A DNA stretch of 35,856 bases, taken from positions 15,457,805-15,493,660 of the forward strand of contig CP154954.1 of NCBI GenBank assembly GCA_039621445.1, written 5' to 3'. A program made the position numbers and the translations under genes. Positions 1,687 through 31,562 of the stretch are shown here, one piece after another (the stretch's first letter is position 1; each line of letters begins with the position of its first letter). A model generated the notes under the pieces. The model was not told the origin of the DNA, did not search any database, and worked only from the letters and a program-made list of their open reading frames with translations. Origin of the DNA: Euglena gracilis. Lineage: Eukaryota.

Positions 1687-2249
1687 ATTTTTATTTATTT
1701 GCAGAAACAAGCACAAGAAAGCCCAAAAAGTAAGCAAAGGAACAAACTCAGAAGGATGTGGCAGCGTATACTGCCCAGAGCCTCCTGAAGCTCGTACCTG
1801 TGCTTAGAAGTTGGCTCCAAACAGCTCGTGGATGCTTTGTGGCCTATAGCCTCAACACCACTCACTGTTTGAAGTCACCTGTTAAGATGGGGGGAAGAAG
1901 GGGCGTAGGAAAGAAACCTAATCTGCTACCAAGTATACGTCCCCTGACTCTATTCCCACTGCCTGTCGGCCTACTTACACCCTCCCGTGGGAACAGAACC
2001 AGGAGAGTAACAAAAAGAAAATCTTTTACTTAACTATTAGTTTTTATTGCCTTTGGGCTTATGCAGAGCACAAGGCAGGTGGAGGAGCCCTATGGGCTAC
2101 GGAAATCGATGCCAAGTTCTTGGCTGTCCTTTCAGGACTTCAAATCAGAAAAATCAAACTTGAAACAGAAGTCTTGAATCAAAGACCAGAATGGAATAAA
2201 ATACCACCTGTGGAGAGGAGAACCAGAATTAGGCTTAGGTATTCCTAAT

Positions 2250-3695
2250 TCAGGCCGTTGGCCATCTGTAGGCATACCACCTAGCATAGTACTGTGTATG
2301 GGGCTCAGAGCTATATCTGGCCGTAGGCTTATACCTACATACACAGTACCATGGCCTTACGGCTGCCTGGTACACACCTGGGGCCAGAGTGCAAGTTGGT
2401 CGTCGGCAATGGGGCCGGGTGCTAGGTCGCAGGGATAGGGGTCCTTCACGTGGGGTTATCCGGTGAATAGGTCCCGGCTCGAGCTGAACGTCACCACAGA
2501 GTGTGACATCTTGGTGTCTGGGCCTCTCGGCTATGACAGCGTCGTTAGGGCTTATATCACCGTGTTGGTCACCTTGTTGGTAGTTTAGTTGCCTTTGTGC
2601 TGTCCGTCGTGCCCTCCGGACATGACGGTCAACTGAAATTACTGATCTTTTCGGACGTAAGAAGGCCATGATGTCCAGGATATCAACGGTGTGTGCATTC
2701 AATGGGGAGAGGTCGGACGAGGAGGGCTCCGTTGGAGGTACTCTGGGGAAAGTGCCTCTCGGCCGGAGAACGTTGGGTAGTGTCATTAGGTGAATAGGGG
2801 GCAGGTAGAGGTGAAAGGCCTCGCCGACGTTGCATACTTCGGACCATAAAACAGTCAGCAACCACATACTGGCATGTACACTCGATGGGGAGTCGTGACG
2901 TGGTGGTCGATGTGGCAATAGCCCTATGAGCACAAACAGAACTCCTCTCAAAACTTCCCAGCATTCGGTGAGCTCATAGACGGTAGTGTTCTCAACCAGG
3001 ACATCGGAAAGGAAGGCGTCTCGGAAACTTTGAAGTTCTGCATCCACCTCTTGAAGGCTCGCCAGCAATCTGTGCCGGATGAAGTTTTCTTGAAGTCCCC
3101 TGGAGACAGGGATTGTTGGTCTTTCCATGGTAGCCAGACGGAAGTAGATGGGTCCTGGTTGTGTTTGGACGTCACCATGGGTGGTGATTCGTTCCCCCCT
3201 TCCAGTCGGCTGGTGTCCTTCTGAAAACTTTTCCCGGGTTTGTTCTGCCGTGTGTCCTCGGCTTGTTATGGAGTGTACTTTTGCTGTCTCAGTAGATGGA
3301 AATACTGTGGCTGAAAAAACAGGGCAGGTTTCCCTGTGGTGCAAGCACCAACCTGCCGAGGCAGTGATGGTTTCAATGTCACACAAAGTGCATTTCAGCC
3401 AGTATGTAGCTTTGGGAAGAAGTGATTGGGAGGAGCCATCGGGGCCTTGCCGCAACGGTAGTTCGGCCTTGATCCGAAAGAAATCAGTCATGTTCATGGC
3501 AACAAGTTGGTCCAATAAATCCATGACTTCACCACAGGGTCCATTAAAAGCCGTCAGCGGGCCTGGATTGGTTTCCACATCACCCATTGTTGTCAGAGAA
3601 TCACCTCGCCCCGTCTTCAGATATGCATCTTCCGGTTTCTTCCCCCCGTGCGGGCTTGCAGGGCAGGGGTGTATGTCGCCGGCTGTTTCTGCCAT
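2250..3695 (-). CDS. 481-aa ORF with multiple 2A-like motifs and a CxxC...HxxxC Zn-finger-like motif; likely part of a retroelement polyprotein
   Basis: TGRGDSLTTMGDVETNPGP (3558-3614), TGRGERITTHGDVQTQPGP (3150-3206), RHQDVTLCGDVQLEPGP (2469-2519), weaker GDIHPCPA and GDISPND; Zn-finger-like KCTLCDIETITASAGWCLHHRETC. Confidence 0.65.
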   Translation of the reverse strand: MAETAGDIHPCPASPHGGKKPEDAYLKTGRGDSLTTMGDVETNPGPLTAFNGPCGEVMDLLDQLVAMNMTDFFRIKAELPLRQGPDGSSQSLLPKATYWLKCTLCDIETITASAGWCLHHRETCPVFSATVFPSTETAKVHSITSRGHTAEQTREKFSEGHQPTGRGERITTHGDVQTQPGPIYFRLATMERPTIPVSRGLQENFIRHRLLASLQEVDAELQSFRDAFLSDVLVENTTVYELTECWEVLRGVLFVLIGLLPHRPPRHDSPSSVHASMWLLTVLWSEVCNVGEAFHLYLPPIHLMTLPNVLRPRGTFPRVPPTEPSSSDLSPLNAHTVDILDIMAFLRPKRSVISVDRHVRRARRTAQRQLNYQQGDQHGDISPNDAVIAERPRHQDVTLCGDVQLEPGPIHRITPREGPLSLRPSTRPHCRRPTCTLAPGVYQAAVRPWYCVCRYKPTARYSSEPHTQYYARWYAYRWPTA

Positions 3696-3761
3696 GCGGA
3701 GGGGCTCCCATTAGGAAATCCTAATAGGATGTTCTTCCATCCTAACTTCCTCATCGGGCAC

Positions 3762-3787
3762 ACTTTCTGAGTGTCTATTTTTTTTCG
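3762..3787 (+). other. Euglena-type spliced-leader exon sequence (relict SL), not followed by an SL-RNA intron
   Basis: ACTTTCTGAGTGTCTATTTTTTTTCG matches the 26-nt Euglena SL exon as I recall it; the next bases are TTCGCATATCATG, not a GT donor. Confidence 0.9.
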
Positions 3788-4147
3788 TTCGCATATCATG
3801 TCGGACAACTGAAAGCCCCTGGTGGGGTTCAAGCTTTCAACTACCTGAAGTTCCAACTTACAACTCAAGTCAGTGAAATATTGAAGCTGCCTTGACAGAA
3901 GCACAAGTTCGACACAGAAGTACAAATCCGAGATACAGTACAGCAAAGACAATTACTGGAGCTGTCTGGAGCAGTGAAGTGGTTCATCTCCTTGCGGCTG
4001 TTGCAGGAGCACACCATCCTCTGCTACACCAGTTGGCTGGAAGCATTACCTCTGTTTCACTTTACTTTGCTGTACCATCTGTGCTGTAACATAGCGACCA
4101 CTGTCCCACCCTGCACTATGGCCCCAGGGCCTTCTGAACACTCCAGA

Positions 4148-4880
4148 GATGTGGCCCCAGGGCCCCAGACTTTTGCCATGATGATCCCAGATTTTGCCCC
4201 AGGGCCCAACAGATTTCAAGCCAAAAAGAACACTTACACAGAAAAGTTTTTCAGAGCTGTGGCCCCAGGGCCCAAGGCCTTTGCCATGATGCTCCCAGAT
4301 TTTGCCCCAGGGCTCAACACATTACAAATGAAAATGGACACTGGCACAGGAAAGTTTTTCAGAGACGTGGCCCCAGGGCCCCAGGCAGAGTTTTCCCCAG
4401 GGCTCAACAGATTTCAAGTCCAAATGGACACTGGCACAGGACAGTTTTTCGGAGATGTGGCCCCAGGGCACAAGACTTTTGCCATGTTGCTCCCAGATTT
4501 TCCCCCAGGGCTCAACACATTTCAAGTCAAAATGGACACTGGCACAGGAAAGTTTCTCAGGGATATGGCCCCAGAGCCCAAGGCTTTTGCCAGGATGCTC
4601 CCAGATTTTGCCCCAGGGCTCAACACATTTCAAGTCAAAACGGACACCTGCACAGGAAAGTTTTTCAGAGATGTGGCTCCAGGACCCCAGGCAGATTTTG
4701 CCCCAGGGCTCAACACATTTCAAATCAAAATGGACACGGGCACAGAAAAGTTTTTCAAAGATGTGGGCTCAGGACCCCCGGCTTTTGCCACGATGCTCCC
4801 AGACTTTGCCCCAGGGCTCAACACATTTCAAGTCAAAATGGACACTTGCGCAGGAAAGGTTTTAGGAGAAGTGGCCCCTC
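4148..4880 (+). repeat. Coding tandem repeat, 108/108/90-nt higher-order array
   Basis: Unit starts at 4148, 4256, 4364, 4454, 4562, 4670, 4760, 4868; encodes DVAPGPKAFAMMLPDFAPGLNTFQVKMDTGTGKFFR in ORF 3974-4954. Confidence 0.9.
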
Positions 4881-4918
4881 GAATAACAACTGGGACAAAC
4901 GTTAAAACACCCTACCAG

Positions 4919-5090
4919 CAAGGTTCCCGGGCTGTTTTTAAACAAGTTGTTTAAAACAGGTTTTTTTCCTATTTGTGGTGTTTTCTTTAAAAAAAGCACC
5001 CCTTTATAAAACAAAAAACAGTTTTTAAACCGTTTTTTATTCATGAAAGTTTTTTTGCTTTGTTTTAAAACAAAAAAAACGGGAACCTTG
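4919..5090. mobile_element. hAT-type MITE (172 bp)
   Basis: TIR CAAGGTTCCCG/CGGGAACCTTG; perfect 8-bp TSD CCTACCAG at 4911-4918 and 5091-5098; removal restores the host reading frame. Confidence 0.9.
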
Positions 5091-5098
5091 CCTACCAG

Positions 5099-5248
5099 GG
5101 AAGACAGGATCTGCTCTCCTGCGGGGACGTCCCCACGCACCCTGGACCGACGCATCACTCCAGAACAGACCACACGCACAGCCCGAACGTCCGGCTGGGG
5201 AGAGGAAGCATCCTCACCTGTGGTGACGTGGAACAAAACCCGGGCCCA
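5099..5248 (+). other. Two tandem 2A/StopGo-like peptides
   Basis: GRQDLLSCGDVPTHPGP (5099-5149) and LGRGSILTCGDVEQNPGP (5195-5248); the latter is 15/18 identical to T2A, EGRGSLLTCGDVEENPGP. Confidence 0.85.
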
Positions 5249-5523
5249 CCGGGAAAGACGCCCCGAGTACGGCCACGGGAAGAAAACAATGCTGAACCGC
5301 AACAGGGCACAGATGATCAAATCACCGCCACATTCACTGATTTAGCACACCCGGCAGGACCACCATTGGGGAGCGCAGATGCTGCAACAGTCACAAATGC
5401 GGCAGGCAATGCCTCCAACTTGCGAAGCTTACCCGACCAACCCTTCGCATGCAACATGAGGGCCCCGAAGTGCTTCAAACGCCGGCTTCAACCATCCGAC
5501 ACCTCCCAGTCTCGACCCAACAA

Positions 5524-5775
5524 GGGGGGTTGGTACACCCCCCCCCCCCCCACCACTCCGAGTGCTTCCCCACGCCATTACCCCCCCTCCCCCCCCCTAG
5601 CCGGACCCCCTCGCCACGCCACCGGCGATTTTCGCGATTTTTTGAACGAAAATTTTGTTGGCGACCATGGTACACCCCCCCCCCCCCCCCTCGTCGCCGC
5701 CCCCCTCGCCACGCCATTTCCCCCCCCTCCCCCCCCCCCTATTCGGACCCCCTCGCCACGGCGTACCAACCCCCC
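5524..5775. mobile_element. MITE, TIR GGGGGGTTGGTAC (copy 1)
   Basis: Inverted ends; highly similar to 7029-7284; no clean TSD at this copy. Confidence 0.85.
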
Positions 5776-6433
5776 ACAGTCTTCTCATGGGCACTACAAA
5801 GATACACGACACAACCAACGGAGGAGTCCCTATTCGGGGTTCTAGCCCTGCCGAAATTAACCCTGAGAGCTGTCAAACTCAAGGGGAAGTTCTCAAGAGA
5901 CATTCTTGAAAGCACAATTCTCCAACGCCTCCACCTCTTCAGACAAGGAGGATGGGCAGAACTGGCAAGTAGCTTGCTAGAGGAATTCAGTTGCGCACAA
6001 CAAACAGGAACAGAGACCCGCTCCCAAAAAAAGATCCGGGAGGACCCCTCTTGTGCAAAAAACTGAAATCTCTTGACCAGCATCCGGCGTCTCGTAGGAG
6101 AAGGGGCGGCGCGAAAAGCCATCCAGGTCCTACAGAGCAAAGGAACGCAAGACGTGCGAGACCCACGGGTACTTCAGAAATTGCAAGACTTACACCCAAA
6201 AGCAGACCGCCCAATTGTCACGCGCCCACCACCTGAAACCCTGAACAAATCACATGACGCAGCAGTTTGGTCAAGCATGGTGAAAGAAAGTGTCCTCAAA
6301 TTCAACCGCACCAACGCGCCAGGACCCTCTGGTCTCCGCATCAGCCACCTCCAAGACTGCCTTCGCCGCCCGGGCAATGTGGCTCTCCTGCAACAAGCCC
6401 TAACGGACTTCTGCATCAAGTGGGACAAAGGTG

Positions 6434-6798
6434 CCATCCCCCCCCCCCCGAGCTATCCCCCCCCCCCCGAGCTATTCCCATTCGGGGTACGGGAATAGCT
6501 CACTGTCATAGCACTTTTTATGAAGAACTTCCTAAGAAAGTGGTCAAAAATCGACGTTTTTGGACCATTTTCAAAAATCACCTTTTGGCAAATGTGCTCA
6601 AAATTGACCATTTTTTTGCCAACATCCAAAAAGTTGCCAAAAATGACCCCTTTTGGGTTGCCCGAGGGTCGGGTATGGGAATAGCTCGGGGGGGGGACCT
6701 AGGTCCCCCCCCCGAGCTGTTCCCCCCCCGTACTGTTCCCATTGGGCCGTAAAGGGTCCCGGGGACGGGAATAGCTCGGGGGGGGGGGGCATGGTGTA
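6434..6798. mobile_element. MITE with GAGCTATTCCC/GGGAATAGCTC subterminal repeats
   Basis: Inverted poly-C/poly-G ends with the repeated motif; interrupts WDKGAI|PQPHSHIW of the RT frame; left end looks damaged, possible TA target. Confidence 0.75.
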
Positions 6799-7028
6799 TC
6801 CCACAACCGCATTCCCACATTTGGTGCTCAGCCTCACTGACAGCACTCACCAAAGAAGGAGGAGGGACACGACCAATTGCCGTCGGGGAAACACTGAGAA
6901 GAGTCGCCGGAAAAACAATCCTGAAGCACCCGCAAGTCCGCAATGAATTGGAATCATTCCTACCAATACAATTGTGACTGGGAGTACCAAATGCTACAGA
7001 GTTCATCGCGCAAGGTGCACAACACATT

Positions 7029-7284
7029 GGGGGGTTGGTACACCCCTCCCCCCCCCCCCTCTCCGAGGGCCTCGCCCCCCCCTTTCCCCCCCCCCCCCCC
7101 CCCCCCTAGCCGGACCCCCTCGCCACGCCACCGGCGATTTTCGCAATTTTTTGAACGAGAATTTTGTTGGAAAACCATGGTACACCCCTCCCCCCCCCCT
7201 GGTTGCCGACCCCCTCGCCACGCCATTTACCCCCCCCTCCCCCCCCCCTATTCGGACCCCCTCGCCACGGCGTACCAACCCCCC
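7029..7284. mobile_element. MITE, TIR GGGGGGTTGGTAC (copy 2)
   Basis: Flanked by duplicated ATT (or CATTG if the TIR has 5 G); excision restores AQHIVQALQ in the RT frame. Confidence 0.9.
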
Positions 7285-9620
7285 ATTGTACAAGCACTTC
7301 AAGCATCCTCCAATTGGGCGCTCTTGCAGGTGGACTTCCGCAAAGCCTTCAACAATTCGCACAGAACCCAAATGTGAATGAACCCCAGTGCGATTAAAAT
7401 TTTAACTCTCACATGGTGGGGTTGAAATTAAAATTTAAGACTCACGAGGGGGGGGCTGAAAATTTAAATTTTCAGTCTCACGGCAGGGGGGGGGATTGAT
7501 ATCCGCAATTTTTCCGCAATTTCCGCAATTTTCCGCAGTTTCCGCAATTTTCCGCAATTTTCCACATTTTTCCCGCAATTTCCGCAATTTTTCCGCAATT
7601 TTCCACCATTTTTTTGAAGAATTTTTTCCCCACCACCGAAGATGGAAGATGCAATGAGTTCAAGCCATTCTTCAAATGGATCAACAGGTGTGCGATTGTG
7701 TTTTGTTGTCCCCCCCAGTTTACCAATTTTTCTCACAGGTGCACCACTGGTCACAGGAGACAAGGGCACAGGGGGGGAGGGGGGGGTCCGAGGGGGGGGG
7801 TTGGAAGCTGTACAGGGGGGGCAGGGGGGGGGTCCCCAGAAAATCACAACTGTACTGCCTACCCCCGAGACAGTTGCGACATTTTTCGTCCAATTGAGGT
7901 TGGCAATGATGGATTTTGCGAAATTCAGATGCATTTTGCAAAACATTTGTGTCTTGTAAAAGAGTGGTAGCCAGTATTTTCACTTTAAACACTTAACGTG
8001 ACCCCCCCTTATTTGTCCCCCCCCCCCTAATTGGCCAGAGCCCAGGTGGCCAATTAGGGGGGGGGGGTTCTCATTTCAAGGGAAAATGCCTTTATTCGGG
8101 TGTTTTTCGGGGGTTCGCGATTATGAAGGACGGGGTCCAGATGGCCAATTGCGGGGGGTTAGGGCAGCGGTGTCGGAACAATTTTTTCCCGCGGGGGGGG
8201 CGAGGAACCGACAAAATTTGGAGCACATCCTTCTTTTCCCCGGCGCGAAGCGCCGAGGAAAATTTTTTTCATGGCGCAACCAAAATGTACTTTTTTCTGT
8301 CCCCTTGGCCCCGAAGGGGCCGAGACGCTAACGCCTTTTTTGAAGACCAATGCTCCAAAAACTTGAGCTGGAAAGCGAAATCATGGGAGGCTAGGCGTGC
8401 CGCTCCGGGGGGTCCGGGCCCCCCCCCCCCCCCGCCCGCCCCCCCCCCCCCCTCAACCCCCCCCCACTGTGCCCAGCATAGCCAAGAAAAACGCATTTTT
8501 TTGAGCAAAAATTGCCCAAAAATGGCCAAAAATGGCCACTTTTTGGAACCAAAAATGGGCCGCGTGCCGCCCTCGGACCCCCCTCCCACCCCTCCGCCCC
8601 CCACGCGGCCGCCCGTGTGGCCGCTCGCCTCAGCCCCCCCCCCACTGTGCCTAGCCTCCATGGGTAGAACCCCTTTGCAAACCTCCCAATTCAACCCCTG
8701 TCGACTTCGCAACCTGGGGGGTGCAGAAGTCATTTTTTTTCACTTTGCGCAAAATCATTTTTTTTTCGTTGACCCGAAGAGTTTCCCCCAAACTCGGCTG
8801 GTCAAGAAAATGGAGGGAGGGGGACATATGGGGATATCAGTTTGTATTCAAACAGCCAAGGTGAAAGTGGTTTGTGGGGTCCCAAAGGAGCACCAAACCC
8901 CCATGAGGCTTTTTTTTAAAAAAAAAATAATTTTTCTTAGGGGGCACTACCCCTGTGCCCCCCCCCCCCCCAGTTACACCCCCGTGACCCCCCCCGTGAC
9001 CTGAGAATCGATCCTTCGCCATTCTTTTTTTTCAGCATTTTTTTAAAAAAAAAACAATGAACTTTCATGTATCCTTTTCCGCCCAATGCGCCTTCACACC
9101 CAAAAATGGGGGGTCACGGGGGAAGTATGACACTTTGCAGGTAGCCAGGAGGCAACATCCATGACGTGGCATCGCGATAAAATTGGTCATTTTTTGAAAA
9201 GGGAATTTTGTTAGGATTTTCTTGACCAACACGTTTTTGGGATGAAGTTTGGGCCATTTTTGACAAAATTCCGTTTTGGGTGGGGAAATGCACCAGTTTT
9301 TGGCACTTCTTTCAGGGGAAAAGTTTTTTTGGCCCCCGCCCCGTGACCCCCCCCCCCATGAGGGCTGAAAATTAAAATTTCAGTCTCATTGGGGGGGGGC
9401 TGAAAATTGAAATTTAAGTCTCACATGGGGGGGGCTGAAAATTCCATGTGGAACAAAACTAGTTAGGTGTGGCACCAAACCGGTTCCAAGAAGTTGCACA
9501 AAACTGGCCAAAAGATGTGGTGCCAAGACTGGCCTCATATGTGGTACCAGACTGGTGCCAAGATGTTGCCCGAAAACTGGCCCCCACATGTGAATCTGAA
9601 TCAAACAGTTGTAAAGCAAA

Positions 9621-30023: not shown

Positions 30024-31562
30024 GACCAGGGTCGGGGGTCTCCCCCCCCCCAATTCTTGGCCGGACTGTAAACCACCCCAGAATGTCGAGGCCGTGTTTT
30101 TGTGGACCGACTCTCAGGGGTTACAACAATTTGGACCCGGGGGGGGGATGCCCCCCCCCCCCTCCTCCACCTGGGTACGCCCCCGGTATTTGGTGGACTG
30201 CAGCCACCCGGGGGACCTGGCGGCCGCCCACCACCGGGCCGTGGCTGCCGTCCACCACCGGGCGGTGGCAGCGGTGGCGCCCCCCGCCGCCCCGCCGCAC
30301 CGCCCGGTGCGGGTGTTTGGAAAGGCAGGGCTGTATGGGAATCCTGAAACCCGGTGGGTGGAATGTGACCCACCATCACCATAGCCCATGAGCCGGCAGA
30401 ACGTCTGGGGCTGGGGGGTGAGCACAAGAGGAGTTTGGGAGGGTATTCAACTGCCTGACCCAACCTCACCCCCACCCTCCCCGAACAAACCCAAATTGTA
30501 ATCCTGCCCCTGATTTTAATGGAAATCCTGAAATACAACTAAACACCCAAGCATCTCCTGCCAAAGTCCAGGGACCTCCCCTCCTTTCCGCAGGACCACC
30601 CCACCCACCACCTCACCGTGAAAAGAAAAAAAAACCTTTGGCTCTGAAGTAAAACTTTGACCAAAAAATCGGAAATACCTCGCAAATATAGAAATACACC
30701 AAGGGCCTGGTGGGGGGGGGTCGGACCCCCCACCCACCAGGTTGGGGGTGGGGGGTGGGTGCAGCCCATGAACTCTGACAGGACGCCACCCCACATGGGA
30801 TCCAGTTATCAGCCGAAGTGGAACCCACTCCCGGGGGGGTCAGCCAGTCAACAACTTTCTCCCAGCCAGCCGTCTCCCAGCCAGGCTGCCGAGGAGGAGG
30901 CTGCACCCCCCCTCCCCCGGATGGGGTGAGCCCAGCCCCTTTGGGGGCCAGCCCGGCAAAGTCAGGCTGGAGGTCAAGAATAGCCAAAAAAGGTTTTTCT
31001 GAGGAGTTTTGGAGGTCTCCACCAGAAATTTCCACTGAAAAATTTCCACCCAGCTAAAATCAAGGGGGGAAATTGATATCTGCAATTTTTCCGCAATTTC
31101 CGCAATTATCTGCAATTTCCACAATTTTTTCCAATTTTCCCCAATTTTTCCGCAATTTCCGCAATTTTTCGGAATTTTTTTTCTTTACGCAATTTTTTCG
31201 TATGAACCTGGAACGGAAGGCAAGATGACTTTTGGCCAGTCCTCGAACATTTCGCAAGGGAACCCAGGTGCTTTTTTTGTTACTTAATTGCTAAGTTGCC
31301 AAAATTTTGCAAATTTTACAAAATTTGACAAAATTGGCAATTTCTGGGCCTTAGGTTTTCCCCCAATTTCTGCTGGGAAATGATTTTGATTTAGAAGAAC
31401 TCCACATTCTGGACCAGATTTTTTTCTGAGACCAAACTTTTTATCAATTTTTTGCCGTTTTCGGATTTTTCACCAAGAAATTCCATATTTCCAAAATCTG
31501 AGTATATGGCTACCCGCCCCCGGTATGCACTTCCCGTTGCCGAGCTCCCCCTTCCTGCTGCC

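Follow-up and report, generated by a model that had tools for sequence, protein, structure and literature searches.

The window analyzed here is the whole stretch of 35,856 nucleotides (nt) of Euglena gracilis DNA located at positions 15,457,805 to 15,493,660 of contig CP154954.1 (assembly GCA_039621445.1, forward strand). Close to its left end, the window contains a decayed retroelement copy (3762-7377, plus strand), designated the SL element, which begins with a complete spliced leader (SL) exon. The SL is followed by a 5′ leader, an open reading frame (ORF) made of repeats (ORF1), two 2A motifs, and a fragment of a reverse transcriptase (RT). The copy is interrupted by insertions resembling miniature inverted-repeat transposable elements (MITEs). 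A short piece of a dispersed repeat, designated H, separates it from a second retroelement piece, designated M. The features of the locus are the following.

2223-3699, minus strand: element M, a second retroelement piece, head to head with the SL element.
3700-3757, no strand assigned: fragment of repeat H, 58 nt, an abundant dispersed repeat that is not part of the element.
3758-3761, plus strand: junction letters GCAC; AC is possibly the 5′ end of the SL RNA, and GC is unaccounted for.
3762-3787, plus strand: SL exon, ACTTTCTGAGTGTCTATTTTTTTTCG.
3788-4117, plus strand: 5′ leader, 330 nt, with one upstream ORF of 4 codons at 3798-3812.
4118-4918, plus strand: repeat ORF (ORF1), Met followed by about 7.5 units of 30-36 amino acids (DVAPGP..FAPGLNTFQVKMDTGTGKFF).
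4919-5098, no strand assigned: MITE-like insertion of 180 nt in all, made up of 172 nt with inverted ends of 11 nt (CAAGGTTCCCG) and the second copy of an 8-nt target duplication (CCTACCAG).
5099-5523, plus strand: 2A region and linker, to which the 2A regions of relatives align by tblastn.
5126-5149, plus strand: DVPTHPGP, a degenerate 2A motif that is off consensus.
5225-5248, plus strand: DVEQNPGP, a canonical 2A motif in the frame of ORF1 and RT.
5524-5775, no strand assigned: first copy of a MITE with ends GGGGGGTTGGTAC...GTACCAACCCCCC, breaking the linker ahead of the RT extension.
5776-6440, plus strand: RT N-terminal extension (5776-6438 aligns to 8 of the 8 relatives tested), with a TGA at 6064-6066.
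6441-6792, no strand assigned: compound MITE-like insertion with ends formed by a C-run and GAGCTATTCCC, flanked by GGTGCCATCCC and GGTGTATCCC, breaking the RT N-terminal region.
6793-7028, plus strand: RT motifs 0-2 (..KEGGGTRPIAVGETLRR..), with a TGA at 6975-6977.
7029-7287, no strand assigned: second copy of the GGGGGGTTGGTAC family of MITEs, 256 nt (7029-7284) plus the second copy of a 3-nt target duplication, ATT.
7288-7377, plus strand: RT motif A (LLQVDFRKAFNN) followed by a TGA, where homology stops.

The SL at positions 3762-3787 is the complete, exact 26-nt exon of E. gracilis, identical to the string printed in PMC6242988. It was the single match in the 35,856 nt, on both strands and even at up to 3 mismatches, and no match was found in 100 dinucleotide-preserving shuffles of the window. 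The sequence immediately 3′ of the SL, TTCGCATATC, starts with TTCG and provides no GTAT donor. As a control for the structure of SL-RNA genes, metagenome contigs were searched for the 3′-terminal 24 letters of the SL, which yielded 7 sites in 6 contigs of environmental euglenids. GTAT(A/G) directly followed the SL at all 7 sites, and AATTTTTGG/A or AATTTCTGG was located 55-75 nt past the SL, again at all 7. On these features, we take the control sites to be real SL-RNA genes. Neither GTAT(A/G) nor the AATTTTTGG/A or AATTTCTGG element follows the SL of the window. The window contained no second SL, SL intron, or Sm-like site. An Rfam scan of the whole 35.9-kb window matched no RNA family, 5S included, indicating that there is no 5S/SL array nearby. 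The preliminary description of the locus had reported an exact 26-nt SL lacking its intron, and this report is confirmed. A genuine SL-RNA gene at 3762, which that description had named among the findings that would overturn its interpretation, is ruled out by the TTCG that stands in place of the GTAT of the control genes and by the missing GT donor, intron, and Sm-like site. The 26-mer spanning the junction between the SL and the leader had 0 matches in the metagenome contigs.

The two letters directly upstream of the SL in the window (3760-3761) are AC. An SL primer reported in PMC5654406 starts with ACAC, i.e. with AC added ahead of the SL string, and ACAC also precedes TTTCTGAG in five of the seven environmental SL genes. 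The contigs carrying the control genes (L001 to L006) share the last 24 SL letters with E. gracilis, with variable introns and flanks. One of them, L006, harbors two SL-RNA gene copies spaced by 782 nt, which suggests a tandem array.

Downstream of the SL, the first in-frame ATG is located at position 4118 and opens ORF1. The tandem units of this ORF (108/90 nt, 4144-4875) show a higher-order period of 306. ORF1 matched no Pfam family at E <0.1, had no homologue in a word-indexed protein search, and had no blastp match among 153 relatives of the RT part. Removal of the 180-nt insertion at 4919-5098 joins the end of ORF1 (...NVKTPYQ) in frame to GRQDLLSCGDV..., which places ORF1 and the 2A/RT part in one reading frame. 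DVEQNPGP conforms to the D(V/I)ExNPGP consensus and stands in frame between two protein modules, as in 2A polyproteins. The in-frame continuity is the sole evidence that ORF1 is native to the element, as we propose.

Three MITE-like families account for the four insertions in this 3.6-kb element. The first family, with G6TTGGTAC ends and a 3-nt duplication, is present twice (5524-5776 and 7029-7285 are 90% identical). The second is marked by CAAGGTTCCCG ends together with an 8-nt duplication, and the third by ends consisting of a C-run and GAGCTATTCCC. Excision of 259 nt at 7029-7287 restores the RT frame, and RT homology picks up again at 6798, after the insertion at 6441-6792. After removal of these later insertions, the SL, leader, ORF1, 2A motifs, and RT appear to form one continuous unit. 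The copy itself is dead, with four MITEs, two in-frame TGA codons, at least one frameshift (near 5524-5779), and an end after RT motif A. Recoding of TGA as Trp was considered and rejected. The TGA at 6064-6066 aligns to a variable position of the relatives and that at 6975-6977 to a conserved Gly, indicating nonsense decay rather than recoding.

RT landmarks were found near 6325 (APGPSGLR), 6860 (RPIAVGE), and 7335 (DFRKAFNN). Homology ended at 7374. In P0006, a relative of 1294 residues, this point is residue 707, and the copy retains only the N-terminal third of the RT. The RT and endonuclease parts of the relatives gave no match at E<=1 in the window beyond 7374; other weak matches in the window (E 0.19-0.27) stemmed from the N-terminal parts of the relatives. 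The window contains neither the remainder of the RT nor the endonuclease or 3′ end of the element. The preliminary description had placed a repeat ORF, 2A motifs, and a CRE-type RT on the same strand after the SL. This order holds, the RT being a fragment and its CRE type a label rather than an observation.

To place the RT, the segment 5779-6450 was used as a query, with the stop codon read as X, in an exhaustive HMMER search. At E<=1e-3, this search retrieved 258 proteins; the top match, 44% identical, had an E value of 8.5e-43. All of the 10 clusters of relatives came from environmental ENA/JGI assemblies. A word-indexed protein search with the RT piece provided no longer relatives, and the pieces of the window itself, along with four further ORFs, matched nothing in Pfam at E <0.1. 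RVT_1 was detected in five of eight relatives scanned (P0006, P0008, P0004, P0014, and P0028) and had no match in P0003, P0012, and P0020; long relatives carry this domain where their sequence reaches into the RT. D[VI]ExNPGP is found ahead of the RT in 17 of the 153 relatives. At the C-terminus, the consensus of the relatives reads CPxC..GDHxVxC..RPADxLL..DxTV, i.e. a CCHC motif and a PD-(D/E)xK-type endonuclease. A profile of 12 long relatives aligned to R2 proteins (9nl3, 9dou, and 8gh6) from the RT through the C-terminal CCHC motif and restriction-like endonuclease (RLE) with an E value of 4e-31 (profile positions 263-1009), and to L1 ORF2p over the RT only (E 1e-11). A phmmer search of P0006 against PDB gave 0 matches, whereas the profile search did match. 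Since the profile matches R2 through the C-terminal endonuclease, the family appears to be of the RLE type (R2/CRE) of retrotransposons lacking long terminal repeats (non-LTR). The RLE region is known from the relatives and is absent from the window copy. The RLE type comprises CRE, R2, R4, NeSL, and HERO, according to PMC4640811. Of the "CRE/SLACS-like" label of the preliminary description, the RLE type is thus retained, the relatives having an RT and an R2-type RLE, the latter absent from the window copy, and placement in the CRE clade is putative.

The N-terminal modules of the relatives vary and include a Dam-like domain and a zinc-finger segment. A match to Dam-like adenine methyltransferases (PF05869, 27-31 bits for a cut-off of 28.1) is located N-terminally, ahead of the 2A motif, in P0006, P0008, P0012, P0020, and others. 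In the portion of the preprint 10.64898/2026.05.21.726589 that was available, the DAM-carrying retrotransposons treated are DIRS and LTR elements, and a non-LTR layout of the DAM-2A-RT-RLE kind may be undescribed. In a large collection, the profile matched mostly proteins annotated as "hypothetical protein" or bearing no name, with one red alga, one transcript identifier, and one "ribonuclease HI". Among viral contigs, one locus was found at 20% identity and was not used.

Contigs of four public runs, each from a different study, were compared with positions 2200-4143 of the window. The type of the runs was guessed, three being considered as DNA (X1, X4, and X8) and one as RNA (X16). All of 2200-4143 was multi-copy in these contigs. 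The fragment of H that precedes the SL element is extremely abundant, the summed contig depth reaching 253,000-411,000 in the bin 3695-3759 (X1, X4, and X8) versus 5,000-29,000 in the bin to the left. Beyond 3757, H has one other common continuation, which is not the SL, in 21, 20, and 13 contigs (agreement 0.77-0.9). Because H copies continue differently after this position, the sequence upstream of the SL does not represent, on these data, the promoter of an SL gene. Joints corresponding to empty sites, connecting 2217 to 3700 with AGA or AGAA in between, were present in all three DNA-type runs (depths 661-2974), indicating that M is a separate insertion in the same copy of H. The locus therefore runs from the left part of H into M (minus strand), then through the 58-nt piece of H and GC(AC) into the truncated SL element (plus strand). 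The ORF of M (3694->2250) contains a canonical 2A motif, DVETNPGP (3581->3558), and two degenerate ones, DVQTQPGP and DVQLEPGP. M is 24-29% identical to the between-2A segment of P0003, P0012, and P0020. Its own segment between 2A motifs is rich in Cys and His, and there is no SL at its 5′ end.

Three readings of this flank were rejected. The idea that 3700-3761 and 2203-2400 are copies of one repeat, which would have placed SL junctions at homologous repeat positions, was dropped because their alignment is not significant (28 of 300 shuffles also attained its local score of 30). The continuation of H ends with GGTACACA, as do sequences upstream of some environmental SL genes. H as the upstream region of an SL gene was nonetheless rejected, since a related unit at 2365-2377 runs into sequence that is not SL (window CTGGGGCC; loose ends at 2376). 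Twin-priming inversion was rejected as the origin of the head-to-head pair, since the ORFs of M and of the SL element differ yet map to the same region N-terminal to the RT.

The leader and the start of ORF1 (3788-4143) were covered by hundreds of contigs at 85-99% likeness. In three runs, leader contigs bridge 3867/3877 to 3978/3987 and continue into ORF1-type sequence at 4140. The bridge from 3877 to 3978/3987 indicates that most copies lack about 100 nt that the window copy has. We conclude that the leader and the ORF start belong to a multi-copy family. In the contigs of other copies (three runs), this segment of about 100 nt, 3878-3977, is missing or has 34 different letters in its place, so that the leader of the window copy is a variant with an additional segment. 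Record 13 of X16 is a 102-nt contig that covers 3779-3852 (9 nt of the SL and part of the leader) with 1 mismatch and then diverges, which assigns it to a locus other than the window. Record 23 of X4 starts at 3786 and has 21 differences. These records are hints that other molecules may share the SL-leader junction. Single contigs also join the abundant 2218-2376 repeat to the SL, from positions 2261, 2265, 2269, and 2272 to 3761/3763. The joint at 2261 was found in all three runs and the joints at 2265, 2269, and 2272 in one run each; the sequence that follows the SL in these contigs lies beyond their view.

We consider it probable that the SL element is a retro-copy of a trans-spliced, SL-capped retrotransposon RNA. 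The junction would have been made by trans-splicing, and the SL-capped RNA would have served as the template. An RLE-type non-LTR element encoding a leader, a repeat protein, two successive 2A motifs, an RT, and, in relatives, an RLE would first be transcribed. Trans-splicing of the SL at an acceptor located just ahead of TTCGCATATC would leave the capped 26-nt leader as the 5′ end of the RNA. The mature RNA would then be reverse-transcribed to its very 5′ end and inserted into a copy of repeat H. Full-length reverse transcription of such an RNA gives a DNA copy opening with the SL exon, free of SL intron and SL-gene flank. Subsequent decay would have brought four MITEs, two nonsense codons, at least one frameshift, and the loss of everything after RT motif A. 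A junction at the exact splice donor, a foreign flank, and a continuous unit are what retro-copying of a trans-spliced RNA predicts. The first of two alternatives offered by the preliminary description, a trans-spliced RNA copied to its 5′ end and inserted at a site other than an SL gene, fits these three features together with the missing 5S and SL genes.

Several observations weigh against this interpretation. A single copy was read letter by letter, and this single-locus reading revealed no source copy bearing a polypyrimidine-AG acceptor. The copy ends at 7377 inside the RT and has no 3′ end of the element, poly(A) tail, or target duplication, so that the case for insertion by retrotransposition is carried by the 5′ junction. 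The right-hand continuation of H had 0 matches in the window at up to 3 mismatches, which leaves the insertion with no 3′ target junction. Since the DNA and RNA labels of the contigs were guessed, expression of SL-bearing RNA is putative. An AG is lacking at the former junction of a daughter copy that opens with the SL, which leaves the propagation of such copies without an explanation. Finally, the perfection of the SL is uninformative: the leader of the window copy differs from the contig majority at 17 or more of 356 positions, and the chance for 26 letters to remain unchanged is about 0.28, so that an intact SL says nothing about selection.

The unit could also have arisen by fusion of two unrelated parts. 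The SL, leader, and ORF1 would then derive from a retro-copied cellular mRNA joined to an RT element by nested insertion or template switching. Such a chimera would account for an ORF1 that has no detectable relatives, even among the 153 relatives of the RT part, and for the other N-terminal modules (Dam-like domain, zinc-finger segment) borne by these relatives. However, after removal of the 180-nt MITE, whose 8-nt duplication is clean, an open frame extends from 4118 across both 2A motifs, and there is no junction scar between ORF1 and the 2A module. In addition, a 2A motif presupposes a protein upstream that it can release, and the N-terminal modules of the family are plainly variable. We therefore regard the chimera as unlikely. 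The second alternative of the preliminary description was a relic of site-specific insertion into an SL-RNA gene, as for CRE1/2, SLACS, and CZAR, the SL being a remnant of the target. Most clades of the RLE type are target-specific, some for SL exons (PMC4640811). The AC that precedes the SL is shared with five of seven environmental SL genes, as mentioned above, and the contigs of three runs that join the SL to the abundant repeat at four nearby positions point to a recurrent adjacency. Against this origin, CZAR and SLACS cut between nt 11 and 12 of the exon (PMC5814959), whereas the exon is whole here. The break occurs exactly at the exon/intron boundary, as splicing gives, and a nuclease would need to hit that one position. 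Moreover, the 58 nt upstream are part of a repeat for which 13-21 contigs per run show another continuation, and neither an SL intron or Sm-like site nor a 5S gene or second SL occurs in the window. With a whole exon and no SL-gene flank, this alternative is unsupported, and we consider it very unlikely.

Under an accident at the DNA level, an SL gene would have recombined with the locus or converted it, a neighboring repeat would have captured an SL fragment on insertion, or the sequences would have been joined in assembly. The region is indeed rich in insertions, with four MITEs and a second retroelement head to head 58 nt away. The element is also broken at 7377, and the joints between SL and repeat can be read as a repeat family inserting beside SL sequences. 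However, both SL boundaries are those of the RNA itself, with 2-4 additional letters before the 5′ end and a 3′ end that falls on the donor site, which unguided breakage would not give. The SL-leader junction is also present in record 13 of X16, which derives from a different copy or from a transcript. We judge such an accident extremely unlikely. The proposed retro-copying of SL-capped RNA can be extended into a broader scheme, which we hold to be doubtful. Promoterless euglenid RLE elements would ride on host transcription, and SL trans-splicing would both excise and cap their RNA, a function that 5′ ribozymes fulfil in R2 and L1Tc. The SL-capped RNA would serve as message and template, stamping every new copy with the SL. 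The T8 polypyrimidine tract of the copied SL would allow trans-splicing to recur at an AG further downstream (the nearest lies at 3812-3813), and insertion would occur preferentially into one abundant repeat family. Two observations bear on the latter preference, namely the presence of two related elements 58 nt apart in one repeat copy and the joining of the SL to a related repeat at four positions within 12 nt (three runs).

The closest known parallel is provided by dinoflagellates, in which relict DinoSL sequences mark retro-copied mRNAs (PMC5585692, citing Slamovits and Keeling 2008; see also PMC6050394 and PMC12014239). In both cases, an SL is found in genomic DNA at the 5′ end of a transcribed unit and is read as a mark of retro-copying. 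In contrast to DinoSL retrogenes, the present case concerns a euglenid, whose SL is a distinct 26-nt sequence, the tag sits on a retrotransposon rather than a host gene, and one full SL is present in one copy instead of stacked truncated relicts. CRE1/CRE2, SLACS, and CZAR are early RLE-type non-LTR elements of euglenozoans (trypanosomatids) and are, like the window element, physically joined to the SL. These elements split the exon and keep SL-gene flanks, CZAR and SLACS sitting between nt 11 and 12 of the mini-exon (available text of PMC5814959), whereas the window element follows a whole exon at its donor end, in a foreign flank, and does not lie at the nt 11/12 insertion point of the CRE clade. 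In addition, the same passages describe no 2A motif for CRE1/CRE2, SLACS, and CZAR, and the window element has one.

R2 resembles the family over the RT and C-terminal region, as indicated above; it targets 28S rDNA and, unlike the window copy, has its RLE part. R2 frees its 5′ end from a co-transcript by means of a ribozyme resembling that of hepatitis delta virus (HDV). Trans-splicing would do for the window element the job of 5′-end release that the HDV-like ribozyme does in R2. L1Tc is of the apurinic/apyrimidinic endonuclease (APE) type. In L1Tc/ingi, a 2A-type motif, DxExNPGP, is found in frame ahead of the enzymatic domains, a position similar to that of the 2A motif in the window element, and L1Tc RNA is described as carrying no capped SL and as having a 5′ ribozyme/promoter, Pr77 (PMC5814959). 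The window element differs from L1Tc/ingi in that it carries an SL.

For Euglena, no report of retro-copies that bear an SL, or of retrotransposons capped with one, emerged from a literature search. The main-text passages available for two E. gracilis genome papers contain no mention of them, the supplements being outside the search. The phenomenon is of a known kind; the euglenid case and the element family appear to be new additions to it. Should SL-stamped copies prove common, the SL would be a marker of full-length retro-copies in the 2.4-Gb, repeat-rich Euglena genome, as is DinoSL in dinoflagellates. Such copies would also show that the RNA of a euglenid retrotransposon enters the normal route of trans-splicing and capping, in contrast to L1Tc RNA, which is described as SL-free. 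They would further separate elements joined to the SL by trans-splicing from those joined to it by gene targeting (CRE/SLACS), a distinction that bears on the origin of SL-gene targeting in Euglenozoa. The present evidence consists of one dead copy and hints. The statement of the preliminary description that the locus would define how the family is expressed and mobilized goes beyond one dead copy, the junction in other copies being only hinted at.

Additional repeats were observed in the window. The summed depth of 2200-2394 and 3695-3759 is 10-40x that of the surroundings and reaches about 970,000 in a 1.8-Gb run. On the minus strand, these high-depth stretches are bounded by GTGTGTACCAGGC ... 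CTCCTCTCCACAG|GTGG and resemble a GT-AG intron with a variable interior. The tail of a short interspersed nuclear element (SINE), a MITE, and a mobile intron are candidate natures for this repeat. A tandem array of 30/33-nt units (AGCTCTATTGAGCATTCCCCCACCCC-type) is located at 1214-1565 on the minus strand, within an ORF-like region. A 10-nt satellite, TCCGCAATTT, is present at two sites of the window, 7502-7612 and approximately 31061-31180.

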